In this document: in pieces, positions 12,169 through 39,127 of the stretch
How positions within the stretch are numbered: the stretch's first letter is position 1
Layout of the letters: every line of letters starts with the position of its first letter
NCBI GenBank assembly: GCA_033723415.1
Contig: JAWVXD010000004.1
Location: 160,001-224,000 of the forward strand
From: Sulfurospirillaceae bacterium
Lineage (GTDB): Bacteria > Campylobacterota > Campylobacteria > Campylobacterales > Sulfurospirillaceae
DNA length: 64,000 nucleotides
Direction of reading: 5' to 3'
Position numbers and translations under genes: made by a program
Notes under the pieces: generated by a model
Databases searched by the model: none
The model's input: only the letters and a program-made list of their open reading frames with translations
Told to the model about the DNA's origin: nothing

Positions 12169-12177
12169 GAGGATAAA

Positions 12178-14719: not shown

Positions 14720-14727
14720 GCCATGTC

Positions 14728-15826: not shown

Positions 15827-15834
15827 GGAACGAA

Positions 15835-22999: not shown

Positions 23000-23010
23000 A
23001 CTCCGCTCCT

Positions 23011-23217
23011 TTATTTTGTAATATTTTCTATAACGTAATTTGCTCTATCATTATCATTTGAGAATTTTGTATATAAGATATTTGGGAAGAAGAATAATTT
23101 CAAAATTACAAAAATAATAAAAAGCTTTATCATGATAAGCACCCAAAGCTCTTTTCCTACTCTCATATTTTGAAATCCGTCAATATAAAAATGGGCAATT
23201 TTTCGAAAAATATTCAT
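23011..23217 (-). CDS. DUF4492 (CydP-like) small membrane protein
   Basis: FYIDGF..M.VGK.LW..I.IKLFIIF.ILKLFFFP; first gene of the cyd operon. Confidence 0.85.
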   Translation of the reverse strand: MNIFRKIAHFYIDGFQNMRVGKELWVLIMIKLFIIFVILKLFFFPNILYTKFSNDNDRANYVIENITK

Positions 23218-23319
23218 ATTCCACCTCTATGATTTAGATTGTATAACATAATAATTTAAATAGCTGTTAAAATCATGATAATAAGGATATTACGTAAAAT
23301 CTTTAGTGGTCTCTATGGC

Positions 23320-24600
23320 TTATTTTTCAAACAACATTTTGGCGCGGATCATTTTGTACTTTTTGGACTGCATTTTTGCGATCTGCTCTTTTGTTAGAGG
23401 CGTCGCACCGACTAGGCGCATCGGCACTTTTAGTCTTAGTATCTCATTGTTTCCACGGTAAGGATCGGTTATGAGAGGATTGTCATGACAGCGCTCGCAA
23501 GATTTGGCGACTTTGCCTATAGTGTGCGGCGTATAGGGGATCCAAGCTTCTATCTTTCTGCCCTCTGTTTTACTCACATCATCCAAGATCATCGTCCCGT
23601 TTGCATCTCTATAACTGATACGGTATTGATACAGCGGCCGCAGGATCTTTATCTTGCCATCATCACTATTTCCAAGCACAAAATCTTCCCATCTTCTGTA
23701 TCGGTAGCCGCTATACCACACACCTTTTTTCAAACCGCCGCTCACCCAATCAGGCATCACTGGTTTGATCTTCTCTTTAGAGTTAAGGGCACGATGTAAA
23801 AAGTTGCTCAGATATTCATCTTCTTGCAGAGTCAGTTTTTTCCATTTTGCATAATCTGCCATGTCGTCTCGAAACACGGAAAGCTCGTATGAGCTGTTAT
23901 TCCAAGTTGCATGACACGAAACGCATGCAAGCTTTTTGTGATATGCTCTATGATTTTTGACACTCAAGGTTTTGTGACAATCCGTGCAGCTTATTTTCTT
24001 GCCTTCATGCATATCCGCACTCGTGTGACAACTCACGCAGGTCATGCCTTTTTGAAAATGCACATCCTGGCTTAGATGATGATAGTCGATGCCGTATTTT
24101 ACTTGCGGGAAATGTCCGTTTTTACTCAGCGGTGCACGATAACTCGCCTCTTCGTCTTTTGGGAAAAGCCCTTGAAAATCGCCGCCTACATAGTTTTTAT
24201 TGTGACAGCTCAGGCACTTATCCATAGCGATCTTACTCCTTTGGCATCTGCCGCTTGTTTGGTGTGGCTCATGACACGCAAGACAACTCAACCCTCGCTT
24301 GATTCCTGAGTCTTTGATATCGGTTTTGCTGTCTATATGGCACTTGAGACACTTTCGTCTCAAAAAATCATCGACCAGATCCTTTGGTTTTTTAACATCT
24401 TTTTTTGCTTGTGGCAGCGTTTGGTAAGTCACGTTGGAATCTTTCACACCCCAAGCCTCTCGTGTCATGTTGATCGCTTTACTGAGTGTGTAGTGGATAT
24501 TGTGTTTATAACCCAAGACCTCTTTTTTGTGGCACTGCACACAATTTTGCGCCATCAAAACAGAAGCGAAAAGCAAGGAGAGGATTATTTTTTGAAACAT
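23320..24600 (-). CDS. Periplasmic multiheme c-type cytochrome, 8 CxxCH
   Basis: Sec signal peptide; CVQCH, CLKCH, CLACH, CLSCH, CVSCH, CTDCH, CVSCH, CERCH. Confidence 0.9.
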   Translation of the reverse strand: MFQKIILSLLFASVLMAQNCVQCHKKEVLGYKHNIHYTLSKAINMTREAWGVKDSNVTYQTLPQAKKDVKKPKDLVDDFLRRKCLKCHIDSKTDIKDSGIKRGLSCLACHEPHQTSGRCQRSKIAMDKCLSCHNKNYVGGDFQGLFPKDEEASYRAPLSKNGHFPQVKYGIDYHHLSQDVHFQKGMTCVSCHTSADMHEGKKISCTDCHKTLSVKNHRAYHKKLACVSCHATWNNSSYELSVFRDDMADYAKWKKLTLQEDEYLSNFLHRALNSKEKIKPVMPDWVSGGLKKGVWYSGYRYRRWEDFVLGNSDDGKIKILRPLYQYRISYRDANGTMILDDVSKTEGRKIEAWIPYTPHTIGKVAKSCERCHDNPLITDPYRGNNEILRLKVPMRLVGATPLTKEQIAKMQSKKYKMIRAKMLFEK

Positions 24601-26348
24601 GACGTTTTCCCACTGTAAAAGAGCTTTTTCGATCGGTTGAAATCAACATAGATCGGATCGCTGTAAGTATCATGACAGATGATACACTTGTACGCACCTA
24701 TTATCTTATGAAGCTCTTTTTTGTTGAAACTTCGGGCATATTTTCTGGAGGTACTTTGAAATTGTTTGCCTTTGGCTGAGACGAAACTATCAAGCGGATA
24801 TGACACGGGTTGCCCGCTTTTAACGGAATCATAAAACGGCTGAAACTCGATGTGCCCTTTTTTGATATCCAGATTCCCTCGACCCAGTCCAAGGGATGCG
24901 GGTTTGAAGTGACAATCCACACACGTTCTACTCTTCTTTTGTGTAGTATGTGGATCCCAACCTGCCATCGCCAAAGAGTGAAAATGCTCTACTTTTTTAT
25001 TTTTAAACACCGTGCCGATCACTTGACAACCTGGAGCAAAAGGCATGATCTTTTTGTTATAACCAACCCCCAAAGAAGGCTCTTCAAACCTCAAAAAGCT
25101 GCGAAGCTCCTGCCACTGTCCCGGAGTCACTTTTTTGGCTACCCAATCAAACTGTTTGCCCTTATCAAAGTACACTTCATGACATCCATAACAACTCGGA
25201 GCCACGGGGGCATGACACGCACTGCAATCAAGTCGCTTGTGGATTGCAAGAGTATGGTAGGGTTTGTCGCTCATCATCGTGACGTCAAATCTTTTACCGT
25301 CTTTTTTACGGTACATCACAGCCTTGTCAAGTAGCTTTTGAACATGATAAAGTGGTGCGTGTTTTTTCAATGTATAAGCGATCGTTTTGGATTCCGGCAC
25401 GTGACCGTTTAGATCACTAAGCGTTTGAGCTAAAGAGTCTGATGGTGCAAAGTGCGGTTTATGGCAATCCTTGCATTTCACATCTTCGGCTTCTTCCATG
25501 TGAAAATGTTTGTGTCCATCTCCCATGACGCCGATTTCGCTGTGACAGTCGATGCAGCTCATCCCGGCTTTTGAGTGGTGGATGTCGGAGGGTAGATCGT
25601 AAAAAAATCTGCCGTCTTTCATCTTGTGTGTAAATTTTCCGTGTTTATAAGGCGTACCGTATCCTTCGCTTTCAAAGATACCAGTGTAGGCAAGTCCGAT
25701 TCGGTTTGATCGGTTATGGCACTTGGTACAATTTTGAATCGGGATGACTGAGCTAAATGTAGCGTGATGGTTGCCTTTGGTATCCGTTACTTTGTGGCAA
25801 TCCACACATCCACCGCCTCGCGCGATCTTTTGGTTTTGGAAGATTTTAGGATCTTGATTGACATGACAAGCCGCGCACAGTTTCCTAAAGTGACTCTCCG
25901 CCATCGAATCTGTGTTGATCTTACCTCTGATGTCTTGCACGCCGATCGTCGAGTTTAAGTCTTTGGATTCACCCCATTGGTATTTGAGAACATTTAAGAT
26001 GCCACTTTGTGAGTTCATCATGGAACCCGTGACACGCTTGATGATGTCGCTGTGGCATTTTCCGCAAAACAGCGGTGCATGATCTAAACTTGCGGGATTG
26101 AGTACGATGCCTTTATGCGCGTCTATCTTGTCGGTTGCAAATTTATTGCCTCCATGACACACTGCACAGCCAAATACTGCCTTGGGATGCGCATGATCGA
26201 TGTCGCTCATACCGGAGTGACAGCTGATGCATTGGTCTGGTCTTGTGATTTCGGACTTTGGTAGCGGCTTGTTTTGGAAGATCGATACCACCACAAACAC
26301 AAGTGATAGCACCACCGCTATAAAAAGAATATAAGTTTTTTTTACCAT
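24585..26348 (-). CDS. Membrane-anchored multiheme c-type cytochrome, 12 CxxCH
   Basis: N-terminal TM (likely start ATG 26348, MVKKTYILFIAVV); 12 CxxCH motifs counted; paralogous to the 8-heme neighbour. Confidence 0.9.
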   Translation of the reverse strand: MVKKTYILFIAVVLSLVFVVVSIFQNKPLPKSEITRPDQCISCHSGMSDIDHAHPKAVFGCAVCHGGNKFATDKIDAHKGIVLNPASLDHAPLFCGKCHSDIIKRVTGSMMNSQSGILNVLKYQWGESKDLNSTIGVQDIRGKINTDSMAESHFRKLCAACHVNQDPKIFQNQKIARGGGCVDCHKVTDTKGNHHATFSSVIPIQNCTKCHNRSNRIGLAYTGIFESEGYGTPYKHGKFTHKMKDGRFFYDLPSDIHHSKAGMSCIDCHSEIGVMGDGHKHFHMEEAEDVKCKDCHKPHFAPSDSLAQTLSDLNGHVPESKTIAYTLKKHAPLYHVQKLLDKAVMYRKKDGKRFDVTMMSDKPYHTLAIHKRLDCSACHAPVAPSCYGCHEVYFDKGKQFDWVAKKVTPGQWQELRSFLRFEEPSLGVGYNKKIMPFAPGCQVIGTVFKNKKVEHFHSLAMAGWDPHTTQKKSRTCVDCHFKPASLGLGRGNLDIKKGHIEFQPFYDSVKSGQPVSYPLDSFVSAKGKQFQSTSRKYARSFNKKELHKIIGAYKCIICHDTYSDPIYVDFNRSKKLFYSGKTSCFKK

Positions 26349-26396
26349 ACGAAACTCATCACAATATCCCAAAACCCAAACGATAATAAGGGTGTT
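26342..26396 (-). pseudogene. Decayed 3' end of a second cytochrome b gene
   Basis: TLIIVWVLGY-[2-nt gap]-MSFVW* aligns with ILIASWVVGYFTMSVIW* of the intact cytochrome b (30855-30908). Confidence 0.7.
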
Positions 26397-26408
26397 AATT
26401 TTTAGATA

Positions 26409-26417
26409 ATTGTATCA
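26409..26417 (-). promoter_or_regulatory. Extended -10 box for the multiheme pair
   Basis: TGATACAAT on the minus strand about 60 nt upstream of ATG 26348. Confidence 0.45.
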
Positions 26418-26586
26418 AAATTCGCCTTAGCAAGCGCCATATTTTCATGATACTCTAGGCGTCAAATCCATCGGTTTTGATATAAAATTTCTTACACGTC
26501 TTAAACAATAAATATTGCTGTACAATAGAATGATCTGCGATGCTACAACATTTCAGCTATTTAAAATTTAGAAACAGGAGTTCGAT

Positions 26587-26751
26587 ATGCAAAAAGGTTT
26601 AGCATTTATCATAGTTCTATTCGTGATACTCATGACGAGTGGTTGTTCGAAAACATGGGAAGGTATAAAACGAGATACGGCTAAAAATACCCAATGGAGC
26701 AAAGACAAGGTCAATCACGGAGCTAACTACGTAGAGAAAAAAACCGAGTAA
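26587..26751 (+). CDS. Small entericidin-like lipoprotein, 54 aa
   Basis: AGGAG RBS; MQKGLAFIIVLFVILMTSG-CSKTWEGIKRDT (lipobox and T..G...D pattern); not in the ORF track. Confidence 0.75.
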   Translation: MQKGLAFIIVLFVILMTSGCSKTWEGIKRDTAKNTQWSKDKVNHGANYVEKKTE

Positions 26752-26888
26752 TTCTAAGCTACAGTGGAATTTAAGTATATAAATTGGAAAAATTCCAAGA
26801 TACAATATCGGGTTTATGGGTTTACTTTATCATCAATCTTTGAGTAAGAAGTAAATCTTTGAGCCGTTAACTCCATGACTTTTTATTT

Positions 26889-28061
26889 TTATTTTCTTGT
26901 ATCTTTTCTAACAGATGTTAAAAACTGATAATAAAGATATCCTAGTGCAATCTTATTCAAAGTCATTACTGTATATGAATCATTAAAATTATCTACTTTA
27001 GAAATTAAATTTATAAATTTAAATATATTATTTACCGTAATATCACATCCTAAATATATATTTGTCAAGAAACTAACAATAAATATCAAGATTAAAGGCA
27101 ACCACCAATTGGTAGAATGATTAGAACTAATCCAATGTAGAAAAGAAACTATCCAAGTAGGAAACTTTTTTTCTTCCAAGAGGTTTTCTCTATTTTTACT
27201 GAGCTCTAATGAATGGTATTTATTAGCTTCTATTTTATTATTAATTTTTTCAAAACTATTTTTAAGAATTCGGTAGGTCTCTTGTGATGTTCCTTTTTTG
27301 TTAAGTTCAATATTATTAAAATTAGCTTCTTTGTAGAAAATAGAATCATCTAAATTTAGTCCCTCTTGAAAATGACATTTAGAAAAATTTACATATTCAT
27401 CAAAACTCACATCTTCAAAAACTACTTTTTCATTAAAAATAGACTTTTTAATGACAGTAATTCCTTTGAAATGAATTGTTTTGAAAGTGCTTTTATCTGT
27501 TGTCGAATTTTCTAATTTAAAATTTAAAAAATCACTATTTTGAATACTAATATTAATATTTGGTTGATTAAGAAGTTTTATATTTTGTATGTCTGAATTA
27601 TTTATATCTACACTATTGAGAAAAATGCCCAAATCAAATACTAACTCTTCACTAATAATTGAATCATTGATCTCTAATAATTTGATAGTATTCTTTTGAG
27701 TTTCATATCCAACAAAATAGTTTGTAAAGCCGTAATCAACAAAAAAAGTTCTGATATGATTAAATCTCAACTCATCAAAAGTACATTGAACAAATTCAAA
27801 TTTGTTGTTAAACAAATTTTTATATATTTCTGCAAAATAAAATAGTTCAAATTCACAATTATCAAAACATATAAACTTGCTATCACTTCTTCCTTTTAAA
27901 TCCTCTATAAATTCATCGATAAAGTTTTCATCAAAAATAATATTTTTAACTCTAATTCTTCTATCATTTTCTAAAATAAAATTTGATGTAGAAATTTCTT
28001 GATAATTATTCGTAAGAACAAATTGCTGAAAGTCATTTTTTATATCTTCATAATTTGTCAA
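26889..28061 (-). CDS. Pentapeptide-repeat-like protein with C-terminal TM helices
   Basis: Repeated xxFxxxxF beta-helix pattern (KSIFNEKVVFEDVSFDEYVNFSKCHF); ETYRILK...EANKY; SNHSTNWWLP + TMs; very AT-rich. Confidence 0.65.
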   Translation of the reverse strand: MTNYEDIKNDFQQFVLTNNYQEISTSNFILENDRRIRVKNIIFDENFIDEFIEDLKGRSDSKFICFDNCEFELFYFAEIYKNLFNNKFEFVQCTFDELRFNHIRTFFVDYGFTNYFVGYETQKNTIKLLEINDSIISEELVFDLGIFLNSVDINNSDIQNIKLLNQPNINISIQNSDFLNFKLENSTTDKSTFKTIHFKGITVIKKSIFNEKVVFEDVSFDEYVNFSKCHFQEGLNLDDSIFYKEANFNNIELNKKGTSQETYRILKNSFEKINNKIEANKYHSLELSKNRENLLEEKKFPTWIVSFLHWISSNHSTNWWLPLILIFIVSFLTNIYLGCDITVNNIFKFINLISKVDNFNDSYTVMTLNKIALGYLYYQFLTSVRKDTRK

Positions 28062-28433
28062 TTATTATATTCCTTATATTATTATTTCGTTGGGAATTTG
28101 AATTTCTAAAATAAAAAAGAGGACAGGTAACTTTTCATCATGAACAAAAAGCAAACTGCTAACCCCATAATTATGATTTTTATATCTAATTAATACTTTA
28201 AATCTTTGAATTTCAACATTCTACACTTATTATCCTCCCTCAATTATAGTCCTCTACTACTTAGCATAGTATAAATATAAATCAAATATTTTTTTACGAG
28301 TTATAAAACATTTAAATAGTAACTCCCTTATCATATTCTTCCCCACTATTAAACCTTTATTAAAAAAAACTTTGTAAAATTGCAGCTGCTTTTCAAAATA
28401 TCCACAACTAGCTTGGGGAAACAAGGAAAAATA

Positions 28434-29633
28434 TTGTCTATTAAAAGATCATTTAGCAAGTTATCATATCTTACATTGGGTTTGTTCGTCTTTTTAACCA
28501 TCATTACTACAAAAATATATGCGCAAGAGATTCCATTGCCTCTGCCGCCGAGTATCGATGCCAAAAGCTGGGTGCTCCTAGATTATGACAGCGGGCGAGT
28601 TTTGATATCTAAAAACCCCGATGAGAGGCGAGCTCCTGCTTCGCTTACTAAGCTCATGACAGAGTACGTAGTAGCTTCACAGATAAAAATCGGTGCCATC
28701 CATATGAATGATCTCGTAAGGATCAGCAAACATGCTTGGCTTGGCGGAGGCGCTAAAACAGACGGATCGACTAGTTTTTTAAAGGTACACAGTGAAGTGT
28801 CGCTAGAAAATCTGCTTCACGGCATGATAATCCAATCTGGCAATGACGCAGCGATCGCTTTGGCAGAGCATGTCTCCGGTTCAGAAGAAGCATTTACTCA
28901 TCTCATGAACGCTTATGCTAAAAAGCTTGGCATGAAGAACACGCACTACTCTGATGCTTCTGGTTATCCTGTGGCAGATCACTATAGCAGTGCTAGAGAT
29001 ATAGCGATCCTATCACGTGCGTTGATCCATGATTTTCCGAAAGAGTATGCGATATCTTCGATCAAAGAGTTCAAATGGAACGGTATCAAGCAACGCAATC
29101 GCAATGCCCTTTTATGGCAAGATTCACGGATTGACGGGATAAAGACCGGACATACCGCAGCTGCCGGATATTGTCTCGATGCTTCAGAACTACGTGGGCA
29201 TTCGCGCCTGATCGCCGTCGTGCTTGGAGCCAGTACCAACAAAGCCAGAGCCGAATCTGCTATGAGCTTGTTGGAATATGGATTTCAGTATTTCAAAACT
29301 TACAAACTTTACGAGCCTTCCAAGCCGATCATCACTTCTCGTTTGTGGGAAGGTAAGAAAAAGACGCTTCAAGTCGGTGTACAAAAAGATGTCTTGGTGA
29401 CGATAGGAAAAGGAAGATACGGCGATATAAAAACGTATGTAAATCTTCCGACTTCGCTGATAGCTCCTTATAAAAAAGGAACTCCGATCGGCACTTTGAA
29501 GATAACGCTGGAGGGCAAAACTCTCAAAAGCGTTCCATTGGTAGCTTTGAGCGATGCACCAAGAGGCAGTTTTTTCTCTAGAGAATACGATAGTATCTTA
29601 CTGTGGTTTCACACACATCTGGGAAAATCTTAA
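28434..29633 (+). CDS. dacA: Serine D-Ala-D-Ala carboxypeptidase (PBP5/6, peptidase S11)
   Basis: PASLTK (SxxK), SGNDA (SxN), KTGHT; PBP5 C-domain; likely start TTG 28434 after AAGGA (ORF open from 28380). Confidence 0.9.
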   Translation: MSIKRSFSKLSYLTLGLFVFLTIITTKIYAQEIPLPLPPSIDAKSWVLLDYDSGRVLISKNPDERRAPASLTKLMTEYVVASQIKIGAIHMNDLVRISKHAWLGGGAKTDGSTSFLKVHSEVSLENLLHGMIIQSGNDAAIALAEHVSGSEEAFTHLMNAYAKKLGMKNTHYSDASGYPVADHYSSARDIAILSRALIHDFPKEYAISSIKEFKWNGIKQRNRNALLWQDSRIDGIKTGHTAAAGYCLDASELRGHSRLIAVVLGASTNKARAESAMSLLEYGFQYFKTYKLYEPSKPIITSRLWEGKKKTLQVGVQKDVLVTIGKGRYGDIKTYVNLPTSLIAPYKKGTPIGTLKITLEGKTLKSVPLVALSDAPRGSFFSREYDSILLWFHTHLGKS

Positions 29634-29764
29634 ACTCAAGAGGGTAGTCCGTATAACGATCAAGCACCCTTTTACTCGGGGATTCAGTATATATAGTTAG
29701 GTGGTTTTAGAATGATTGCATTTAAAGCTGTTAACCAGATTATAAAGATAACCAAGAACAAGGG

Positions 29765-30646
29765 TCAATCTACTTTTTTTTCTAAAACAGGTCTTTCTCT
29801 GTAAGGAAAGTTTTTCAAACGGATATCTCCTCGTTTATGAGGATTCGGTATGACTTTCGTTTTGTCGATCCAATCTTCCCATTTAAAGTTTTTGATGACC
29901 TCAGCCTGATAACTCTCACTCAGCGGATGACTCAGAACATCGTTGATATGCTTCCACTGATAATAACGCATAAGATCTACCTGATAAGGAGTAGGATTTC
30001 CTTTTGCGTTTTTGACGACTTTTTTCAGATCTATGACTTTGCGCATATCGACCTTTGTCTTCCATGTGATCTTACCGGGAAGCACGACGGGTTCACCAGG
30101 GATATTGTTGATCCCTTGTTTCCAGGTTGCCAAAACAGCGACTTTGGTATCTTCACGATATATGATAATCGCATGACTATACTTTTTATTTTTGAAGAAT
30201 CCTAAAGTACCGTACTGAAGACGCGCTCCTGTCAAAAAAGCCAATCCGTCAGACCAGCAGGGACTTGTTCCCGAGATACCCCTTAGAACACTTCGATCTA
30301 TGATCCCATCAGGGAAAAGTATCTTGAAAGCCACTTTAGCGCAATTTGCCACATGAGTTGTTCCCTCGCAGTCATGACCATGCCATTTGATCATGTCTTT
30401 TATCGTCACGGCATAAGTTCGCTGATAATATCGTCCTTGAGTACCTTTTGTCGCAAGCATTTCAAATACCGGGGCATACGGCATGGCAGCCATCGGAGCA
30501 TACCAAGTCGGAACTTTGTCAGGTTGAGTCACGCCGGTTTCAATAAAAGTATTGACACCCTCTTTTGGAATCGGCTCCTGACACCAAGATGATGAATATA
30601 TTAACGTTAAGATCATTAACAGTAAAGGAACTAGTTTAGTTTTCAT
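29765..30646 (-). CDS. Secreted FmdE/FwdE-family protein
   Basis: Signal peptide; WHGHDC.G and SPCWSDG...LTGAR.QYG motifs. Confidence 0.7.
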   Translation of the reverse strand: MKTKLVPLLLMILTLIYSSSWCQEPIPKEGVNTFIETGVTQPDKVPTWYAPMAAMPYAPVFEMLATKGTQGRYYQRTYAVTIKDMIKWHGHDCEGTTHVANCAKVAFKILFPDGIIDRSVLRGISGTSPCWSDGLAFLTGARLQYGTLGFFKNKKYSHAIIIYREDTKVAVLATWKQGINNIPGEPVVLPGKITWKTKVDMRKVIDLKKVVKNAKGNPTPYQVDLMRYYQWKHINDVLSHPLSESYQAEVIKNFKWEDWIDKTKVIPNPHKRGDIRLKNFPYRERPVLEKKVD

Positions 30647-30854
30647 TTTTCACTCCTCCTTTTTAGTTAAAAATTTAAAAACAATATGATCCTAACCACC
30701 TCACTATTTTATAGATACATATATTATATTCCTGCGATACTTAACATGAAATAAATAAAAATGAACGTATATTTGCGCTAGATTTGCTACTTTCTACTCT
30801 CTAACCCATCGTGCGATCTATGTGATGTCGTTTGATGCGAACAGCTCTTTTTTT

Positions 30855-31655
30855 CTACCAAATCACACTCATCGTAAAATATCCAACAACCCAAGAGGCA
30901 ATGAGGATTTTGATGCTGTTTTTGTATTTGATATAAGGGATAAGTAGGAGTAAAGCAAAAGGGATCAATAAGATCAGATTGACCGTCAAAGAAGAGAAGT
31001 TGATACGCAGAAGATTTTCCGCACCCCAAAAAAACCAAGGTCCTTTGAGTGCATCTACTTTTTGAGTAAGCGCGATGTCAGGAGGCATCAAAAATGCCAA
31101 ATATCCGGCGATACTCAGACCGACTGCAATCGTGAGGTATTCTATCTTTACTTTTAAAGTGTTGACATGTCGAAGAATCGCATACGATAATACGATCGGC
31201 AAGAACACGATGTGCCAGATAAAAAATTTATAATAATACACACTATCGTCTTGAAAAAGTGGCAAAAAGTGACTAAGAAGCGGAGTGTTTTTCATAAGAT
31301 TATATGCCACGTCAGTCGCTGCTAGTGCGCTTTGATCTCCTTTGAGCACAAAACCCGTGAACATCAAGATCACCACGACTAAAAATCCTAAGACAGAATA
31401 ATTCCAAGAAGTGTTTGATATCTTTATCTTTTTTTTCAGTATCTCAAAGGATATATGCAACAGCAATACAAGCGTAAATGCTTCGGAACTAAAGTAATGA
31501 AGTGCTCTAAAAAGATGCCCGTAAGGGATGATAAAGGTCATCTTTTGAACGCTGTCATAGGCAAGTGAGGGATGATACACAAAAGCTACGATCAGACCGC
31601 TTGTCATGCTGACAAAGAACAATCCCATGCTAAGCCATGATACAAATTTAGACAT
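30855..31655 (-). CDS. Compact cytochrome b (Rieske/cytb complex)
   Basis: YHP, R.LH-x13-H, FTGFVLKGD, WH-x14-H, Qo-like GPWFF in place of PEWY. Confidence 0.85.
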   Translation of the reverse strand: MSKFVSWLSMGLFFVSMTSGLIVAFVYHPSLAYDSVQKMTFIIPYGHLFRALHYFSSEAFTLVLLLHISFEILKKKIKISNTSWNYSVLGFLVVVILMFTGFVLKGDQSALAATDVAYNLMKNTPLLSHFLPLFQDDSVYYYKFFIWHIVFLPIVLSYAILRHVNTLKVKIEYLTIAVGLSIAGYLAFLMPPDIALTQKVDALKGPWFFWGAENLLRINFSSLTVNLILLIPFALLLLIPYIKYKNSIKILIASWVVGYFTMSVIW

Positions 31656-31673
31656 TTTCGACTTTCATCACAA

Positions 31674-32093
31674 TCAGCCTATATAGAGGGTTTTATTTTT
31701 AATTTTGTAGCTAATTGTATCTAAATTCCTCTTAGCAGGTCCTCTGAGTCTCACGCCTTCTATGCTAAATCTACTTTTATGACACGGGCAGTTAAAGACC
31801 TTGTTTTGTTTGTCAAAATTCAAGATACATCCCATGTGCGTGCAATGCGCATCGTAAACCGTGATCTTATCAGCCTCTTTATGGATGAAATATTCTTGTT
31901 TATTGATCTTGGTTATACCCTCACTGATATCTTTAAGCGCTATCGAGATTTTTCTGTTCGGTTTTTCGTCAAAAAAAGTAAATTTGTAGATAGGATAAGA
32001 GAAAGCTCCTGCCACGACAAATGGCAAGAACTTTAAAAATCTTCGTCTCTTATCGAGTAAATAGTTCTCAAACTGGCTTCTAACACCCTTCAA
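31674..32093 (-). CDS. Rieske 2Fe-2S protein
   Basis: Tat-like RRRFLK + TM; CTHMGC and CPCHKSRF; GPA.R.L; start uncertain (nearest in-frame TTG 32093; ORF open to 32177). Confidence 0.88.
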   Translation of the reverse strand: MKGVRSQFENYLLDKRRRFLKFLPFVVAGAFSYPIYKFTFFDEKPNRKISIALKDISEGITKINKQEYFIHKEADKITVYDAHCTHMGCILNFDKQNKVFNCPCHKSRFSIEGVRLRGPAKRNLDTISYKIKNKTLYIG

Positions 32094-32457
32094 ACTGGCT
32101 ACCACCATCATCTGGAACCGGAGTATTGGCTTGGGCAGGAGGTGTTGTATTTTTTGGAGTGTTGACAACCGGAGCATTGAAGTCTTCTACCTCTCCTTGA
32201 GCCACCATTCTCTTGACGATGTCATTGTAATTTGCCCAGGCTTTTTTACTCCAGCTATTTGCCTGCACGGCTTTTTGCGCATAAATACTAGCCAAACGCA
32301 GATTGTTGTTTTGAACCTCGACTCTTGATGCATTTATATAGTGTTCTGCTTTAATATTATCCATTTTGTAGTAATATCTATTTTGAGCAGGCAGATTGAT
32401 ACTTAAAATGCCCACAACAAGAAACAATACAATAGTCAATACGGTCTTTTTTCTCAT
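32080..32457 (-). CDS. Secreted hypothetical protein with TPR-like helices, P/T/N linker and C-terminal GGSQFEGC
   Basis: Signal peptide; GGAG RBS; lies inside the operon between psrB-like and Rieske genes. Confidence 0.75.
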   Translation of the reverse strand: MRKKTVLTIVLFLVVGILSINLPAQNRYYYKMDNIKAEHYINASRVEVQNNNLRLASIYAQKAVQANSWSKKAWANYNDIVKRMVAQGEVEDFNAPVVNTPKNTTPPAQANTPVPDDGGSQFEGC

Positions 32458-32469
32458 TTTCCACTCCCC

Positions 32470-33063
32470 TTAATAATTGATAGTGATATAGTAGACATTC
32501 GGAAGCGTTCCTTTGTCTTCTTTTAGTCTAGTGATAGAAGTAGCATTTTTCATCATCTTTGCGACATTACTATCAGGATCATTTAAATCACCAAAATTTC
32601 TTGATTCGCCTACGCAAGTCGCCACACAAGCAGGGTCCAATCCGTTACTGAGTCTTGGCAGACAGAAAGTACATTTGTCTACGGATGATTTTGTCTCATC
32701 ATAATATCTGGCATCATACGGACAAGCTACCATACAAGCTTTGCATGCGATACACATATCAGAGTCAACCAAAACAATCCCGTCTTCATCTCTCTTAAAA
32801 CTTGCACCGGTAGGGCAAACATCAACACATGGAGCATTGTCGCAGTGATTACATAAAACAGGCAAAAATCTTATACTTGGATTTCCAAAGTTATCCTCAT
32901 CCTCGATCTCCCATACTTTAGTTCTATAAGCATCCTTTAGAGGAGGAACTTCCCAATCTGTTTTACAAGCTGCATAACAAGCATCACAGCCTATACATCT
33001 ATCTCCTACTATGACCATGGCAAGGTTTTGGTCTTTATTTTCTTTTTTGTTTATTATACTCAT
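32470..33063 (-). CDS. 4Fe-4S dicluster electron-transfer subunit (PsrB/PhsB/NrfC-like)
   Basis: CIGCDACYAAC, CNHCDNAPCVDVCP, CIACKACMVACPY, KCTFC...PACVATC. Confidence 0.93.
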   Translation of the reverse strand: MSIINKKENKDQNLAMVIVGDRCIGCDACYAACKTDWEVPPLKDAYRTKVWEIEDEDNFGNPSIRFLPVLCNHCDNAPCVDVCPTGASFKRDEDGIVLVDSDMCIACKACMVACPYDARYYDETKSSVDKCTFCLPRLSNGLDPACVATCVGESRNFGDLNDPDSNVAKMMKNATSITRLKEDKGTLPNVYYITINY

Positions 33064-33065
33064 CT

Positions 33066-35327
33066 CTATGCCTTTACTATTTTTACAAAGCCGTTATTGA
33101 ACGCTCCTGCCCCGCTGATTGGGTCAATTTCGTCACTTACAAAAAAATTATCTCCGATGCCTTTTCCATATCCTCTGCTCCAAGCTTTTGTTCTGTGTCC
33201 AAAACCATGATGAACAAAAACGGAACCTTCTTTGATCCTTTTTGTCACTTTTAATCGCTCAGGATGATTCGATCTCACACCCGTTTTAGAACCAACCAGA
33301 AAAACCATCTGACCGTCAAATAAACCCATCTTTTCTGCATCTTTTGGATTTATCCAGATTGGACTGTCATCTTGCAATTCTAATAACAGCCAATTGTTCT
33401 GAGTTCTGGCATGCGTGTGTCTTGGACTCTTGCCAAAAAGCAATCTTAATTCATCACCGGAAGTTGCCGCTATAGGGTCTTTATAGATAGGCAGAGGAGA
33501 AAAATCATCTCCAAACTGCTGATACATATCTTCCAAATTTGATGCATACAGTTGAACTTTACCGCTAGGTGTTCTAAATTTTGGTGTGGTTCCACTTGCT
33601 ATAGGATACGGATCAGCCTCTTCAAATCTCAAAACACCGTCTTTTTTTAATCTATCTGCTTGTTCTTTACTTAAAACTTTAAAGAGATCATCTATCTGTT
33701 TGCTCGGAGAGTGCTCAAACCAGTGTTCTACCTTAAATTTCTCAGCAATACCTTTACAGATGTCAAAACACCCTTTTGTGTCATAGATAGGTTTTATTGC
33801 CGCGCGTCTTAGCGCGATAAAAGGTATCTTGTCTTTTTGCACATATGGAGCATCATCTCTCTCTAAGTACGTAGATTCAGGAAACACAACATCAGCATAC
33901 ATAACGGTATCGCTGAATTGTGTGTCTATAGCAATCAACAGATCAAGATTCTCTATGGCTTTATAGATATTATTTACTCCGGCGCTTGAGTGAAAGAGTG
34001 GATTTGTTCCATAGAGCATCCACGCTTTTATAGGATATGGTTTTTGGCTCAACGTTGCTTCATACATACCGTTTGTCCGTCCCAGATTTGCGGGTGCCAG
34101 AGGGTATTTTTCACCTTTGCCCGCACCATCTGCTCTTCTTGTGCTTGGCTGTTCAGGCTCTTCGTATTCCGGTAGTTTTACAGAGATAGCTGATCTCACC
34201 CATAGACCTCCGGGAACTCCCCAGTTTCCCATGAGCGCATTGATTATCGCGATCGCTCTGACAGTTTGCGTGTCATTGCCGTATCGTGTCATCCTTCTTG
34301 GAGGTATAGCTACTACATTTGGGGCATATTTTGCAAAATCCCACGCTATACTTTCTATCGTCTTGGCATCAATACCGCATTTTTTACTTGCCCATTCAGG
34401 AGTGTATTGAGCTATATGAGCTGAAAGTTCATCATAGCCGGTACAATATTTTGTAACAAACTCCATATTGGCAAGTTTATCTCGTATGATCACATGTATA
34501 AAACCTAAGGCTAAGGCGAGATCGGTACCAGGATTTATCTGCAGCCAATCTGTAGCATTTACACAAGATTCACTAAGTCTTGGATCTACGTATGTAAGTC
34601 TTGCACCTCTGGCGAGTCCTTCTGCAAAATCTTCAGCTTCTCTTACTTGAAGAGCTCCCGCCATATTTCGTCCGAACAGTATCATGTGTTTTGTGTTTGC
34701 CATGTCATAGGTCTCATGACCACTGACTCCTGTGCCGAATGTCAATATCCAAGCCATCTCTCTACTGCCTAAACATTGTGAATATGCAGGAACTACAATA
34801 TTGGGACTTCCTAATGCTTTTGTTAGAGCGTGAACATAAGGCTCTCCGGTTCCGTGCATAAACGTTGCCAAAGTTTCAGATCCGTATTTTTTCATAAGAG
34901 GATTCAATTTGTCATAGACATATTGATTTGCCTCTTCCCAACTGACTTTTTTAAACTTGCCTTCTCCTCTTTTCCCGACTCTTATGAGAGGATATTGGAT
35001 GCGGTCTGAATCGTAAGTCGAGTCAATACCAGAGTTTCCTTTCGCACAAATGTGACCATTGCTGTTTGGATGAAGAGGATTGCCTTCTAGTTTATGAATT
35101 CGCCCTCCTCTAGTATATACATTTAATCCACAGTTCCAAAAACACATCTCGCAAAAACTGGAACTTTGCACGCCTCTATCATATGTCAAAAACCTTTTGC
35201 TTTTTTCATCTTTGCTTTGTACCGCTCTAAAAGGAGAAGGGATACCTGTGACACTTGCAGCTCCTACAACACTTGTTACACCTGCTAACTTTAGAAATCC
35301 TCGTCTTGTCATGTTGTATCTACTCAT
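33066..35327 (-). CDS. Tat-exported Mo/W-bisPGD oxidoreductase, PsrA/PhsA/SrrA clade (polysulfide/thiosulfate reductase-like)
   Basis: TRRGFLK Tat motif; CEMCFWNC..C FS0 cluster; SQCLGSR putative Cys ligand; ADVVFPESTYLER; HTHARTQNN. Confidence 0.88.
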   Translation of the reverse strand: MSRYNMTRRGFLKLAGVTSVVGAASVTGIPSPFRAVQSKDEKSKRFLTYDRGVQSSSFCEMCFWNCGLNVYTRGGRIHKLEGNPLHPNSNGHICAKGNSGIDSTYDSDRIQYPLIRVGKRGEGKFKKVSWEEANQYVYDKLNPLMKKYGSETLATFMHGTGEPYVHALTKALGSPNIVVPAYSQCLGSREMAWILTFGTGVSGHETYDMANTKHMILFGRNMAGALQVREAEDFAEGLARGARLTYVDPRLSESCVNATDWLQINPGTDLALALGFIHVIIRDKLANMEFVTKYCTGYDELSAHIAQYTPEWASKKCGIDAKTIESIAWDFAKYAPNVVAIPPRRMTRYGNDTQTVRAIAIINALMGNWGVPGGLWVRSAISVKLPEYEEPEQPSTRRADGAGKGEKYPLAPANLGRTNGMYEATLSQKPYPIKAWMLYGTNPLFHSSAGVNNIYKAIENLDLLIAIDTQFSDTVMYADVVFPESTYLERDDAPYVQKDKIPFIALRRAAIKPIYDTKGCFDICKGIAEKFKVEHWFEHSPSKQIDDLFKVLSKEQADRLKKDGVLRFEEADPYPIASGTTPKFRTPSGKVQLYASNLEDMYQQFGDDFSPLPIYKDPIAATSGDELRLLFGKSPRHTHARTQNNWLLLELQDDSPIWINPKDAEKMGLFDGQMVFLVGSKTGVRSNHPERLKVTKRIKEGSVFVHHGFGHRTKAWSRGYGKGIGDNFFVSDEIDPISGAGAFNNGFVKIVKA

Positions 35328-36474
35328 GGCTGATCTCCTCTTCTAAGTTAAAAAACTTAGCTCCTAAAAAATAAACGATCCCTGCTACTCCTATGCTACT
35401 TATAAAAAGCGATAATTCAGAATTTGAAACCGTGTATGTATGCTGTATAAATTCTACATTATTGCTTGGTCTTGAAAGCAGCTGACCTCCGATAACGGCA
35501 TCAAATCTTGCAAAGAAAAGACCTACTAGAACAAATAATCCAGCCAATGCACTAAGTGATGGAGTTTTAAATCTGCCTATGATTATGAGGATTATAGGTA
35601 TTACCATACCGATCAATACTTCATAATAGTAAAAATTATGTGATAATACACCATTGCCTACAAATAGCTTCATAGTTGCTCCAAGTTCCGTATCTGAGGT
35701 ATAAGAGTTGATAACAATATTCCAAAAATCAATAATCAACATAAGCGACAAAAAGAAAAACAATCCTTTGCTCAGCGCATTTACTGACTTTTGACATACG
35801 TCATAGATCTTATTTAAATAGATCATCAATAGTACGATTGCAAACCCTCCTGCGATGGCTGAGATGATAAAGAATAGTGCAAATGAGCTTGTATGCCATA
35901 GAGGTTTTGATCCATTTGAGTCGAAAACCAATGCCATAGTTCCATAAGCTATCAGTCCGAGACAAGAACCTATAAGTGATGCAAAAAAAGCCGAGTTTGC
36001 TTTCTTGCTTAATAGAAAATATACTTCCAACGCCAAGAAAGGCAGCTCTGAAGCATACAATACGACTAACCACCATATTGGTGATGTTATTTTAAATTCC
36101 GTAAAGTAGAGCACAAGTCGTAAAACTTGCAATTTGAAAGGTCCGCCTAAATCCCAAAAAATGATAAAAAATGCAGCGACTAAAGATGATAGCGAAACAA
36201 GAGCAACTTTTTTACTCAATATCTTAAAAGCTTCTATCTTAAAAACATGAGCCAACGCACCTACGACTGCCGTTCCTAAAGTGATCCCAACAAAAAAAGA
36301 ATAACCGATGATGAGTATACCCCAGGGGACTTCTCTACTAACACCGTAAGATGCTTCTTGTCCATGCAAAAACACTTGAACCATGCCGTATATACCGACA
36401 CTTGCCACGAGGCATGATAAGATCAACCAAAGGTTACCTTGTCTCTTATGTACAAATTTTATACTTCTGTGCAT
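35320..36474 (-). CDS. NrfD/PsrC-family quinol-interacting membrane anchor
   Basis: YGVSREVPWG, DLGGP, TSPIWW, PLWHT, R.DAVIGGQ; about 10 TMs. Confidence 0.9.
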   Translation of the reverse strand: MHRSIKFVHKRQGNLWLILSCLVASVGIYGMVQVFLHGQEASYGVSREVPWGILIIGYSFFVGITLGTAVVGALAHVFKIEAFKILSKKVALVSLSSLVAAFFIIFWDLGGPFKLQVLRLVLYFTEFKITSPIWWLVVLYASELPFLALEVYFLLSKKANSAFFASLIGSCLGLIAYGTMALVFDSNGSKPLWHTSSFALFFIISAIAGGFAIVLLMIYLNKIYDVCQKSVNALSKGLFFFLSLMLIIDFWNIVINSYTSDTELGATMKLFVGNGVLSHNFYYYEVLIGMVIPIILIIIGRFKTPSLSALAGLFVLVGLFFARFDAVIGGQLLSRPSNNVEFIQHTYTVSNSELSLFISSIGVAGIVYFLGAKFFNLEEEISHE

Positions 36475-37001
36475 ACTTGTTCCTTGAGAGAATTAATAAT
36501 TTCTAGAGATATTTCTCCTGCCAAAGGGAATATTTCTAAATCAGTTGCATACTTCAAAGAGTCTACAAATCCCCCTAACCAACCTAAAAATTCTAAAAAT
36601 TCATTTAATTCTGTATATCTTTTTTCTTCAGCTAAAATAGCGACGAATCGCATCATGAAACCAATATGATCAGCCGGTTTTTTCATATTTTGGGCATCAA
36701 ATTGATATCCGCAACTCCTATAAAAATCATCTATTTTTGACAATGTCGCACCTGACATCTTGCCATCGATCCACCAAGAGGCATAAGGGATACATTTTAG
36801 AATTGAGGATTGTATGTTGAAAATCCTTATATACTCTGCTTCTATCTCGTCATAATCCCTAAATTCACAACCTAAATCACGGGATATCATCGAGTTGAAA
36901 TCATCCAATGCTTTGTTCGTAGGATAATCAAAAATATCTGCACATAAGAACAGTGCAGATATTTTTTCTTCTTCCGGTAAAGTTATTTTTTTCATTATCA
37001 T
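36459..37001 (-). CDS. TorD/DmsD-family molybdoenzyme maturation chaperone
   Basis: EYIRIF, PYASWW, PADHIG motifs. Confidence 0.88.
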   Translation of the reverse strand: MIMKKITLPEEEKISALFLCADIFDYPTNKALDDFNSMISRDLGCEFRDYDEIEAEYIRIFNIQSSILKCIPYASWWIDGKMSGATLSKIDDFYRSCGYQFDAQNMKKPADHIGFMMRFVAILAEEKRYTELNEFLEFLGWLGGFVDSLKYATDLEIFPLAGEISLEIINSLKEQVCTEV

Positions 37002-37058
37002 TTATCTAACAAGTGCTCGATTTTTACATCTTGTACATGATATAAAAAACCTATGCAT
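37002..37058 (-). CDS. Putative 18-aa CxxC leader peptide
   Basis: AAAGGAG 11 nt upstream; MHRFFISCTRCKNRALVR*, TAA abuts the chaperone ATG in frame. Confidence 0.35.
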   Translation of the reverse strand: MHRFFISCTRCKNRALVR

Positions 37059-37390
37059 GCTGTTATTTTCTCCTTTTAGTTCTTTCCTTAATACAATTAA
37101 ATTAAAAATTTTTCAGGCTAGAAGCAAACTTAAATCTATCAATATGAAAGGACATTCACTTTTAAAATAATAATCCTAAAATGTTTAAATAGCACTGAAA
37201 ATTTTATAATTCTATCGTAATAAAGTAAATATTTATTTACGAATTTGCCTAAAAAATCATATTTTCATACTTTATTATAATAATAAAAATAAGTCTTTAT
37301 TTTATAATCATAAGTAAAGTAAAAGTATCTTTGATAAGTTTATATTATATATGGACGCAAAATTGATTAGTTTGTATTTTATATATAAAA

Positions 37391-37431
37391 GTTTGAGTCA
37401 TTTTAAATTGAAGATTTTAAAATGCTCAAAC
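37391..37431 (-). terminator. Hairpin downstream of moeA
   Basis: gtttgag(t)cattttaaa / tttaaaatgctcaaac inverted repeat followed by TTTT on the minus strand. Confidence 0.5.
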
Positions 37432-37459
37432 CTATTTGAAATTTGTTGTAGTTAAGTAG

Positions 37460-38671
37460 TTAAATTGAGAAATCCAAAAGGAAAACATCTACAAGAGAGT
37501 TTTTTTCTATCATTTTCGTATCTTCATCAATACATAGCAAGGCTGCATTATCCAACATGTTATTCAAAATAGCACTGCTTCCTTCTTTTTTGCCATGTAG
37601 ATTAACAAAAAGCTTTCCATCTTTTGTGCTTATGTTACAAGCTGTAAACTCTTTATATTTTGAACGTTTTTTGTAATCTTCTTGAATATATGCTTTTATA
37701 ACCGGTAGATAAAACTCTTGCGCACTGATCTTTCGCAAGAAAGGCAAAACATACAAAAATGCAACAACACTGGAGCTATAAGGAAATCCTGGAAGTGAAA
37801 AGATGTATTTACGTCCGATCCTGACTACCTTTATATGACGCCCAGGTTTTATAAATGCACTATCCACTATATGGATCGGCTGAATGTCACCCAAAACTTC
37901 TTTGACAAAGTCAAAATCCCCGACACTTACTCCACCGGTTGTTATTAAGACATCGGAAGTATTTAAAGCATCAAGCATCACTTTTTTTATCTTGTCTTTA
38001 TCGTCTTTTACTATCTCTAATCTTGAAGTCTGTGCTCCGTGCTCTCTTAAGATCGCTTCTATGGTCACATGATTAGAGCTTCTTATCTGTGAGATATTTT
38101 CTCTCTCCTCACCAAAATCAAGTATCTCACTGCCTGTCGCCAATATAGAGATACGCGGTTTTACGAAAACCGAAACTTGAACATATCCCAGTTCTGCCAA
38201 AACTCCGATCTCGGCATATCTTATCTTTGTGCCTTTCTTTATAAGGATTTCTCCTTTTTTATAGTTTTCTCCGATAGGTCTTGCCGAAAAACCTTTTTCT
38301 ACAGGTGTTACGATATTTATAGTATCCCCTGTTACTTCTACATTTTCTATAGGGATTAGCGTATCGCTTCCCTCACTCATCAATGAACCGGTAAAAGTTT
38401 TAACGCAGGTACCTTTTGTGACAAGATTGCCTTTGTAACTTCCAGCAGGAAGTCTGTCTATAATAGTAAGTTTTTCCAAAGATTGATCAACTGAGCGAAT
38501 CGCATAACCGTCCATGGAGGCTGTTACGTATTCAGGATTGTTAAAAGTTGCAACGATATCCTGAGATAAAATTCTATTTAGTGCTTCAGTTATAAAAACT
38601 TTTTCTGATCCAAGACTAAAGTCTATAGAATTTTCCAGTGCTTTTAGAGTATCTTCGTATTTTTCAAGCAT
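37460..38671 (-). CDS. moeA: Molybdopterin molybdotransferase MoeA
   Basis: SMDGYA, TGSEI, TTGGVSVGDFDFV, KPG, LPGFPYS; true start ATG 38671 overlaps the moaE stop. Confidence 0.95.
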   Translation of the reverse strand: MLEKYEDTLKALENSIDFSLGSEKVFITEALNRILSQDIVATFNNPEYVTASMDGYAIRSVDQSLEKLTIIDRLPAGSYKGNLVTKGTCVKTFTGSLMSEGSDTLIPIENVEVTGDTINIVTPVEKGFSARPIGENYKKGEILIKKGTKIRYAEIGVLAELGYVQVSVFVKPRISILATGSEILDFGEERENISQIRSSNHVTIEAILREHGAQTSRLEIVKDDKDKIKKVMLDALNTSDVLITTGGVSVGDFDFVKEVLGDIQPIHIVDSAFIKPGRHIKVVRIGRKYIFSLPGFPYSSSVVAFLYVLPFLRKISAQEFYLPVIKAYIQEDYKKRSKYKEFTACNISTKDGKLFVNLHGKKEGSSAILNNMLDNAALLCIDEDTKMIEKNSLVDVFLLDFSI

Positions 38672-39122: not shown

Positions 39123-39127
39123 TTATA

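Follow-up and report, generated by a model that had tools for sequence, protein, structure and literature searches.

Enzymes of the Psr/Phs type (PsrABC, PhsABC) are thought to need only their NrfD anchor, and Rieske/cytochrome b units are regarded as self-contained quinol:cytochrome c reductases. Alternative complex III (ACIII, ActABCDEF) is a quinol:cytochrome c oxidoreductase whose PsrA-like subunit (ActB) is without cofactor. The carrier cysteine of SoxY is located on a C-terminal arm, and the Psr of Wolinella receives its sulfur from Sud/rhodanese. Geobacter Cbc6 corresponds to GSU2930-2935, also named cbcMNOPQR and extMNOPQS (PMC5877670 and bioRxiv 10.1101/2021.04.15.440034). According to PMC5877670, it consists of the 12-heme ExtM, the 10-heme ExtN, the Rieske protein ExtO, the cytochrome b ExtP, the membrane protein ExtQ, and the tetraheme ExtS, and lies beside the rhodanese-like ExtH and the porin ExtI. 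In a 2026 review, the physiological roles of Cbc3-6 remain unknown, and Cbc6 is predicted to carry electrons from menaquinol to the periplasm (PMC13591261). The locus described here is located on contig JAWVXD010000004.1 of a Sulfurospirillaceae bacterium (assembly GCA_033723415.1), within a stretch of 64,000 nucleotides (positions 160,001 to 224,000) that is referred to as the window. It combines a Psr/Phs-type molybdopterin enzyme (MoA) and its NrfD, iron-sulfur (FeS), and chaperone partners with a Rieske/cytochrome b (cyt b) pair, two multiheme cytochromes (MHC12 and MHC8), and a small protein ending in cysteine (p125).

These nine genes form a jointly inherited set, which in most relatives also includes a periplasmic rhodanese. 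Both the Psr/Phs-type enzyme and the Rieske/cyt b pair are thus co-inherited with a 20-heme chain and a Cys-ended protein. Every domain family of the cluster is known; neither the combination nor the p125 family was found described in the literature searched. The original prediction knew of no characterised equivalent in Campylobacterota, and the full-text literature search agreed: it brought up no paper in which a Psr-type enzyme is connected with Rieske/cyt b and cytochromes of the ExtM/N type, with the NrfD-family survey of Duarte et al. 2021 outside its coverage. The genes of the locus and its surroundings are as follows.

36459-37001, minus strand: TorD/DmsD-family chaperone for Tat proofreading of MoA (Pfam PF02613, 64 bits; weak matches to NCBIfam DmsD and TorD).
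35320-36474, minus strand: NrfD-family membrane subunit (Pfam PF03916, 70 bits; about 10 helices).
33066-35327, minus strand: MoA, Psr/Phs-type molybdopterin catalytic subunit of 753 amino acids (Pfam PF04879, PF00384, PF01568; twin-arginine signal RRGFLK).
32470-33063, minus strand: four-cluster [4Fe-4S] subunit, PsrB/TtrB/DsrO-like (Pfam Fer4_11, 106 bits; 16 Cys).
32080-32457, minus strand: p125, secreted, 125 amino acids, C-terminus ...QFEGC, without Pfam or NCBIfam match.
31674-32111, minus strand (reading frame open to 32177): small Rieske [2Fe-2S] protein (Pfam PF00355, 43 bits).
30855-31655, minus strand: short cyt b of 266 amino acids (Pfam PF00033, 46 bits).
29765-30646, minus strand: FmdE-domain secreted protein, part of an insertion (Pfam).
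28380-29633, plus strand: PBP5-type D-Ala-D-Ala carboxypeptidase, part of the insertion (Pfam).
26889-28061, minus strand: pentapeptide-repeat membrane protein, part of the insertion (Pfam).
24585-26372, minus strand: MHC12, ExtM-like 12-heme cytochrome c of 595 amino acids (12 CxxCH; N-terminal transmembrane anchor).
23320-24600, minus strand: MHC8, secreted, soluble ExtN-like 8-heme cytochrome c of 426 amino acids (8 CxxCH; signal-like N-terminus).
37460-39349, minus strand: moeA, moaE, and moaD for molybdopterin synthesis (Pfam MoeA_N, MoCF_biosynth, MoaE, ThiS).

The relatives were annotated by tblastn with the window proteins, so that unrelated genes are visible only where flanking open reading frames (ORFs) were clustered. 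The loci are mutually related rather than independent samples, and the labels of metagenome-assembled genomes (MAGs) are those of the depositors. The cyt b was matched in 18 of 61 relatives (E <= 1e-5), including 11 of the 13 other genomes of the same genus, with one of the 18 matching only through its long canonical cyt b. The order chaperone-NrfD-MoA-FeS-p125-Rieske-cytb-MHC12-MHC8 was contiguous in 15 loci of relatives wherever the contig reaches, and it recurred in 34 loci of a pattern scan with one genome per species. These 34 loci are titled as Campylobacteraceae, Sulfurospirillum, Campylobacterales, and Nitratifractor MAGs, together with Desulfurellales and Hippea MAGs, whose cyt b is 36-41% identical to that of the window. 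Wherever 300 nt or more were available downstream of cyt b, MHC12 followed it (31 of 31 loci), and wherever 2.6 kb or more were available, MHC8 was present as well (20 of 20 loci). MoA was found in 28 of the 30 loci that extend at least 2.5 kb upstream of cyt b and was missing in two (L069, L072). The neighbourhood survey of these 30 informative loci therefore upholds the predicted co-occurrence of the Rieske/cytb and multiheme genes with the Mo enzyme. Few members of the phylum carry the system: out of 401 good, evenly sampled genomes, four had this type of cyt b and six an orthologue of MoA. Close homologues were also found in records named Hippea jasoniae, Hippea sp. KM1, Sulfurospirillum sp. 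(including 1612), and Campylobacter sp. The homologues of MoA also include proteins of Deferribacteres at 40-45% identity.

In the window, the genes named by the original prediction were recovered at their coordinates as a single minus-strand run of chaperone, NrfD, MoA, FeS, EGC protein, Rieske, and cytb, in which neighbours either overlap by 8-32 nt or are separated by 2-18 nt. The predicted absence of cytochrome c1 was equally borne out, as no c1-type gene follows cyt b and a c1-like gene occurs only in the canonical operon on contig C9. The two multiheme cytochromes do amount to 12 + 8 = 20 CxxCH as claimed, but they do not come directly after cyt b: three unrelated genes (26889-30646), one of them on the plus strand, part cyt b from MHC12 over 4.5 kb. 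As cyt b and MHC12 abut in relatives, their link is real despite this insertion, whose genes were seen in none of the other loci between the two. The closest relative carries another ORF of 311 amino acids at the same junction, which may be an insertion hot spot. In L041 (on the same contig as L046) and in L051, the Mo half of the cluster, from the chaperone through p125, runs in the opposite direction to the Rieske half. A consensus scan of positions 22900-37600 gave 60 promoter-like sites (47.8 ± 6.6 in shuffled sequences) and 10 terminator-like sites (9.7 ± 3.4), both at chance level, which leaves the transcription units undefined.

The moaDE-moeA genes do lie just upstream at 37460-39349, and they are accessory neighbours outside the conserved cluster. 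Neither they nor cydAB were accepted as members, since adjacency was absent from the 15 loci of relatives, apart from moeA in the closest relative (L030). The cydAB genes for cytochrome bd oxidase (20347-22999, minus strand) are located immediately downstream of the MHC8 gene, an adjacency that was unseen in the relatives' loci.

MoA aligned over its whole length (residues 8-753) to PsrA of T. thermophilus (2vpw_A; 2vpw/2vpz) with 495 bits. Its best NCBIfam model was PhsA (PRK15488, Salmonella PhsABC) with 494 bits against a cut-off of 694; the models DmsA, ArrA, and TtrA scored far lower. On this basis of hidden Markov model scores, PDB sequence scores, and a ranked list of homologues, the predicted Psr/Phs type is supported. 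The cysteines of the FS0 cluster (C59, C62, C66, and C94) are invariant in 20 MoA orthologues. The same applies to C185, H158, and R344, which align to a Cys, a His, and an Arg of PsrA (2vpw_A) that we take to be the Mo ligand and two active-site residues, respectively. As these Mo-site residues are kept together with a maturation chaperone, whose position is conserved in the relatives' loci, MoA looks catalytic. The substrate is not revealed by a Psr/Phs sequence, according to PMC13047784. The FeS subunit scored 187 bits with the NCBIfam model TtrB and 185 bits with DsrO, both under the cut-off.

The NrfD subunit has about 10 transmembrane segments by hydropathy, and a PDB sequence search with it gave no match. 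Its AlphaFold model (predicted local distance difference test, pLDDT, of 79) matched ActC best among PDB folds, with TMq values of 0.80 for 6btm_C (E = 7e-10, 14% identity) and 0.79 for 8k9e_C and an overall ActC range of 0.74-0.80, compared with 0.51 for the eight-helix PsrC (2vpw_C). In the predicted model, the fold is thus ActC-like, as in ACIII, rather than PsrC-like.

Two further molybdopterin enzymes were noted elsewhere in this genome. Contig C2 (371386-375509; L080:7386-11509) bears another PsrABC-like operon, a plain one in the order A-B-C, which encodes an A subunit of 791 amino acids that is 36% identical to MoA, a B subunit of 187, and an NrfD of 390 amino acids. The other is a molybdopterin oxidoreductase frame on contig C4 (126062-127150), beyond the window; it spans 947 amino acids with one in-frame TGA and may be a selenocysteine formate-dehydrogenase-type gene.

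The likely true start of the Rieske protein is M23 at position 32111, just before a KRRRF twin-arginine translocation (Tat)-like motif, which gives a protein of about 145 amino acids with an RRRF Tat-like anchor. Its CTHMGC and CPCH boxes recur unchanged in all of 16 sequences, and it scored 54-60 bits with the NCBIfam b6f and bc1 Rieske models, under their cut-offs. The cyt b has about seven helices and no Cys, and it joins a b6-like four-helix core and a subunit-IV-like C-terminal part in one chain. Two His pairs (H53, H67, H148, and H163) are invariant, as is P206-W207-F208-F209. The resulting GPWFF stands at the place expected for PEWY, with a weak alignment to the PEWYF of mitochondrial cyt b. 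The AlphaFold model of cyt b was poor (pLDDT 62.6) and unusable for a fold search. A canonical Rieske/cyt b/cyt c set (petB) is located elsewhere in the genome on contig C9, and the cluster-type cyt b is present besides it in a single copy.

MHC12 carries an N-terminal transmembrane segment (residues 14-32) and 12 CxxCH, which are found in 23 of 23 full-length orthologues. It matched the NCBIfam model ExtM with 264 bits over profile positions 15-585 of 599 (cut-off 800), while the PDB sequence search with it gave no match. MHC8 is a paralogue of MHC12 (24-32% identity, tblastn) and scored about 91 bits with ExtN/ExtO (cut-off 200). Among 21 full-length MHC8 orthologues, 13 have 8 and 8 have 10 CxxCH. 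For cyt b, 73 bits were reached with ExtP (cut-off 290). Together with the published composition of the cluster, these matches substantiate the likeness to Geobacter Cbc6/Ext that the original prediction had proposed.

The most distinctive member of the cluster is p125. It consists of a hydrophobic, signal-like N-terminal segment (residues 6-24), a conserved helical core resembling TPR-like clusters of about 130 amino acids (Atlas features), a variable Ala/Pro-rich linker, and a C-terminal Gly-Cys. All 20 aligned orthologues have G124 and C125. Among 5.8 billion proteins, the family comprises 44 clusters at 90% identity, all of them "hypothetical" or unnamed except for one labelled RodZ by JGI, and no Pfam domain was found in any of the 44. 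The Gly-Cys-COOH end is present in 43 of them; the exception lies on a 1.6-kb contig. The p125 gene stays with the Mo half in the inverted loci and is also kept where Rieske/cyt b is missing. From this pattern, p125 is proposed to be a swinging-arm sulfur carrier. A structure prediction of MoA (36-753) with p125 (26-125) scored 0.07 against a mark of 0.32, which speaks neither for nor against a contact.

Clustering of flanking ORFs identified a tenth member, a secreted tandem rhodanese directly upstream of the chaperone gene. This tandem protein lies within 100 nt of the chaperone gene in 13 of the 20 loci with a chaperone, and in L071 a single-domain rhodanese takes this place. The orthologue of the window genome is located on contig C6 and is 62% identical to that of the closest relative. 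There it adjoins a split YeeE/YedE "Sulf_transp" pair and a MarR regulator; in L045, this transporter pair stands beside the cluster itself. Several relatives have two-component regulators ahead of the cluster. In L047 (2217-3659, plus strand) and at a like position in other loci of the same genus, a histidine kinase with a Tll0287-like periplasmic domain and an OmpR-type regulator lie directly upstream of the rhodanese. This pair is a candidate for a dedicated regulator of the cluster and is missing from the window locus.

Natural variants show which parts can occur without each other. Two complete Campylobacter-family genomes (G081 and G126) carry the order rhodanese-chaperone-NrfD-MoA-FeS-p125-MHC12-MHC10, in which MHC12 follows p125 without an intervening Rieske/cyt b; across the whole genomes, only a long canonical cyt b was found elsewhere. 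Conversely, the order in a Desulfurellales MAG (L072) is rhodanese-Rieske-cytb-MHC12-MHC10-rhodanese, and the 5 kb upstream contain no Mo module. Either quinone module can thus be found with the multiheme pair in the absence of the other. In the upstream tandem rhodanese of this MAG (L072:3986-5095, plus strand), Gly replaces the catalytic Cys (YGFIG vs YCNTG), while the second, downstream rhodanese is normal. The upstream protein bears a Pro-rich C-terminal extension ending in EEGC-COOH, the same kind of tail as that of p125. Among 120 listed rhodanese homologues, a GC end after such a tail was found in three, the one of L072 included.

An exhaustive profile search with cyt b recovered a tight family of eight representatives below E = 1e-50 and a wider family of "GPW[FY][FL]" cyt b proteins of 270-300 amino acids. 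Among the best 150 representatives, 17 were fusions of 883-966 amino acids with 11-12 CxxCH (P0035, P0039, P0042, P0054-P0056, and others), and the C-terminal part of P0035 aligned to MHC12 residues 32-581 with E = 7e-77. By this Rosetta-stone evidence, MHC12 would be the direct partner of this cyt b, in place of c1 or f. A metagenome scan with a narrower cyt b alignment (A5) reached only a different subfamily, made up of pairs of a Rieske protein and a cyt b of 278 amino acids (L086, L101, L096, and many others). These pairs end a conserved housekeeping string of ilvB, ilvN, psd, pssA, asd, rsmD, and coaD, and no multiheme, Mo, or cytochrome c gene was detected near them by tblastn in the metagenome loci. 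They may represent the "partial complex III" type discussed for Desulfobulbales.

The reading that we prefer, with a probability of roughly 0.4, is that the cluster encodes one modular, periplasm-facing respiratory system for sulfur (possibly selenium), which would work reductively with two quinol-entry modules and a carrier-bound substrate. Sulfane sulfur would be handled as a protein-bound persulfide or polysulfide, with the rhodanese loading the C-terminal Cys arm of p125. Four features point this way: the rhodanese, the YeeE/YedE genes nearby, the homology to Psr/Phs, and the arm that ends in Cys. Menaquinol would be oxidised at two alternative modules, the NrfD-FeS module (ACIII/NrfCD-like) and/or the Rieske/cyt b module (bc-like), since the multiheme pair occurs with either alone and both types are known quinol:cytochrome c oxidoreductases. 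Both modules would feed two kinds of periplasmic centre, the Mo site and a 20-heme chain that would replace cytochrome c1, and these would then reduce sulfur species, whether carried or soluble. By way of Rieske/cyt b, part of the quinol oxidation would become electrogenic.

The lean towards a reductive role comes from the carriers. The Hippea and Sulfurospirillum groups are sulfur reducers, and Hippea is obligately anaerobic. In five Desulfurellales-type MAGs with the cluster, whose completeness is unknown, a heme-copper oxidase (COX1) was found in none, cytochrome bd in four, and NapA above the cut-off in one. The homologues in records of Hippea, Sulfurospirillum, and Campylobacter and the lack of a COX1 hit in all five MAGs lean towards reduction.

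The most far-reaching interpretation, which we regard as rather doubtful, is a previously unrecognised carrier-based sulfur respiration with Sox-like logic that is coupled to quinone. The rhodanese would pass sulfur (or selenium) to the p125 Cys, the bound substrate would be processed by MoA and the ExtM/ExtN-type cytochromes, and an ACIII-like NrfD-FeS module and a minimal Rieske/cyt b would serve interchangeably as connections to menaquinone. If this is true, the presence of both modules would allow an electrogenic (Q-cycle-type) or even bifurcating sulfur respiration, and the Geobacter Cbc6/Ext cluster would gain a function.

Several points weigh against the reductive reading. The bc-type Rieske centre of menaquinol-oxidising complexes usually lies at about +100 mV or higher, and polysulfide/sulfide at about -260 mV. 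As the Rieske potential is far above that of polysulfide, a route from Rieske to sulfur would need an unusually low-potential centre or an acceptor of higher potential such as tetrathionate or selenite. The window genome also encodes SoxY and three genes of the heme-copper-oxidase (COX1) family, so that an oxidative use is possible. All NCBIfam scores to named models are under their cut-offs, and no subunit can therefore be named by equivalence. The insertion in the window, the other insert in the closest relative, and the divergent arrangement in L041 and L051 imply that the two halves can be separate transcription units. A search for sequencing runs with the cluster sequence returned DNA runs only and no RNA run. 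The carrier role suggested for p125 derives from a sequence pattern and gene context.

The strongest competitor is an oxidative quinone loop, in which MoA would run backwards, oxidising sulfide/sulfane (or thiosulfate) as a dehydrogenase and passing the electrons to menaquinone via NrfD, and Rieske/cyt b would re-oxidise the menaquinol through the 20-heme wire towards oxidases, Nap, or extracellular acceptors. We hold it to be somewhat unlikely; with a Rieske centre too positive for polysulfide and with SoxY and COX1 genes in the host, it is nevertheless almost as likely as the reductive reading. Two quinone modules per operon would fit one quinone reducer and one quinol oxidiser, and Rieske/cyt b complexes oxidise quinol and release the electrons at a fairly high potential. 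To the SoxY and the three COX1-family genes of the genome, cydAB can be added as next-door neighbours. A comparable scheme, from sulfur oxidation through quinone and Rieske + cyt b to periplasmic cytochromes c, is proposed for cable bacteria in PMC13047784, and PMC6896113 speaks of a reverse function for additional Psr copies in Epsilonproteobacteria. Against such a loop, the variants with one module keep the multiheme pair, for which a quinone loop is not the whole story. Homologues in records named Hippea, an obligate anaerobe, and the scarcity of COX1 and NapA in the Desulfurellales-type MAGs fit it poorly, and the host already possesses a canonical bc complex.

A quinol bifurcation or disproportionation appears improbable. 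In this scheme, a Qo-type site would send one electron to the heme wire and a high-potential sink, while the low-potential electron would help, via the b hemes, to drive the reduction of polysulfide or thiosulfate at MoA without an input of proton-motive force. Menaquinol-driven reduction of polysulfide or thiosulfate is endergonic at standard conditions, a Qo-type module is here tightly linked genetically to a low-potential reductase, and the four heme-ligand His and the PEWY-like GPWFF of cyt b are invariant. However, no path is evident from the b hemes to the FeS chain, and the variants without Rieske/cyt b or without the Mo module indicate that neither half needs the other.

There is a similarly slim chance that selenium or tellurium is the chalcogen in question, which would overlap with the reductive reading. 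The cluster would then serve the respiration or detoxification of selenite or tellurite, and the rhodanese and the Cys arm would carry selenium. The positive potential of selenite would suit the Rieske route, and the NCBIfam models for ExtM/N/P are titled as proteins of a "selenite/tellurite reduction operon". According to PMC5877670, the Geobacter ext cluster is named for selenite/tellurite reduction and a deletion of extI lowered both; the test, however, covered the porin ExtI only and not Cbc6. The scores with the Ext models are far under the cut-offs, and the YeeE/YedE sulfur-transport neighbours and the Psr/Phs homology favour sulfur.

That the locus merely joins a conventional PsrABC-like reductase and a distinct quinol oxidase of the Cbc6 type as independent neighbours is very improbable: although the parts lie 4.5 kb apart here with an opposite-strand gene between them, are divergent in L041 (again on the contig of L046) and L051, and each occur alone in some genomes, they are adjacent in 28 of 30 informative loci, across cyt b proteins only 36-41% identical to that of the window, p125 and the multiheme pair stay together even without Rieske/cyt b, and the genome has a separate plain PsrABC-like operon.

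In sulfur-cycling Campylobacterota from sediments and vents, the cluster hints at a so far unstudied means by which energy may be conserved from sulfur chemistry at low potential. It also supplies candidate partners for Geobacter Cbc6 and, with p125, a new candidate family of sulfur carriers. The variants without Rieske/cytb or without the Mo module, the cytb-12-heme fusion, and the rhodanese with a fused Cys tail amount to natural genetic dissections of the system. As homologue records are named for cultured strains (Sulfurospirillum sp. 1612, Hippea sp. KM1, and Hippea jasoniae), experiments look feasible.

Besides the cluster, the window contains a complete urease locus (5878-16425, plus strand) with ureD, fused ureA/B, ureC, ureE, ureF, and ureG. 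It is preceded by an ABC transporter with a periplasmic binding protein, two permeases, and two ATPases, which is read as urea-type. An ORF of 429 amino acids (18899-20188, minus strand) lies between DUF5698/DUF2179 and cydB and had no Pfam match at E <= 0.01. At 50821-63591 (plus strand), a cluster of sugar-nucleotide/nonulosonic-acid type encodes a DegT aminotransferase, a cytidylyltransferase, NeuB, a methyltransferase, and a thiamine pyrophosphate enzyme, together with short-chain dehydrogenase/reductase, ATP-grasp, GH57-like, epimerase/dehydratase, and UDP-glucose dehydrogenase family proteins.

Compared with PsrABC/PhsABC, the locus shares the Tat-exported subunit of the bis-pyranopterin guanine dinucleotide type with the FS0 motif and the Cys/His/Arg residues, the four-cluster FeS subunit, the NrfD anchor, and the TorD-like chaperone. 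In contrast, the order is chaperone-C-A-B instead of A-B-C, the NrfD has about 10 helices and fits ActC whereas PsrC has eight, and the enzyme always occurs with p125 and two multiheme cytochromes and usually with Rieske/cyt b and a rhodanese.

With Cbc6 it has in common the 12-heme ExtM-like and the ExtN-like cytochromes, the small Rieske protein, the short cyt b without c1, and an associated rhodanese, which in the relatives is ExtH-like by its domain. Descriptions of the Geobacter cluster mention neither a Mo enzyme nor an NrfD, and its order is M-N-O-P-Q-S whereas that of the window is Rieske-cytb-M-N. A separate ExtQ was not seen, and as the cyt b has 266 amino acids against the 205 positions of the ExtP profile, the extra part is probably fused. 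The Ext equivalog cut-offs (800, 200, and 290 bits) are far from reached. Clustering of flanking ORFs revealed no conserved genes beyond the ten, with homologues of ExtS, ExtKL, and ExtI not specifically searched.

The resemblance to ACIII lies in a module derived from PsrA/PsrB/NrfD, a membrane-anchored multiheme cytochrome, and an ActC-like NrfD, and it extends to the overall make-up of the Rieske-less variant (G081 and G126). Unlike in ACIII, the Mo-site residues and the chaperone are kept, and the cytochromes, which carry 12 and 8-10 hemes, resemble ExtM/N rather than ActA/ActE. The bc1 and b6f complexes share the Rieske boxes CTHxGC and CPCH and the di-heme cyt b with four invariant His, but the cluster has no c1 or f, and its cyt b is a one-chain protein of 266 amino acids with about seven helices and GPWFF. 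The "partial complex III" proposed for cable bacteria (Rieske + cyt b) is closer in that it lacks c1 and has periplasmic multiheme cytochromes as acceptors. In contrast to both, the cyt b of the cluster is genetically tied to a Mo enzyme and ExtM/N-like cytochromes.

By analogy, p125 may be compared to SoxYZ and to the Sud/rhodanese-Psr pair of Wolinella, as it is a small periplasmic protein with a Cys at the extreme C-terminus of a flexible arm, encoded near heme and Mo enzymes and a sulfurtransferase. It differs from SoxY in that it has no PF13501 match, is helical and TPR-like, and ends in (E/V/M)GC-COOH and not in GGCGG, and it belongs to neither of these families. Judged from its sequences, the cluster is a hybrid of a Psr-type complex iron-sulfur molybdoenzyme, a Cbc6-type Rieske/cyt b, and a new carrier-like protein.

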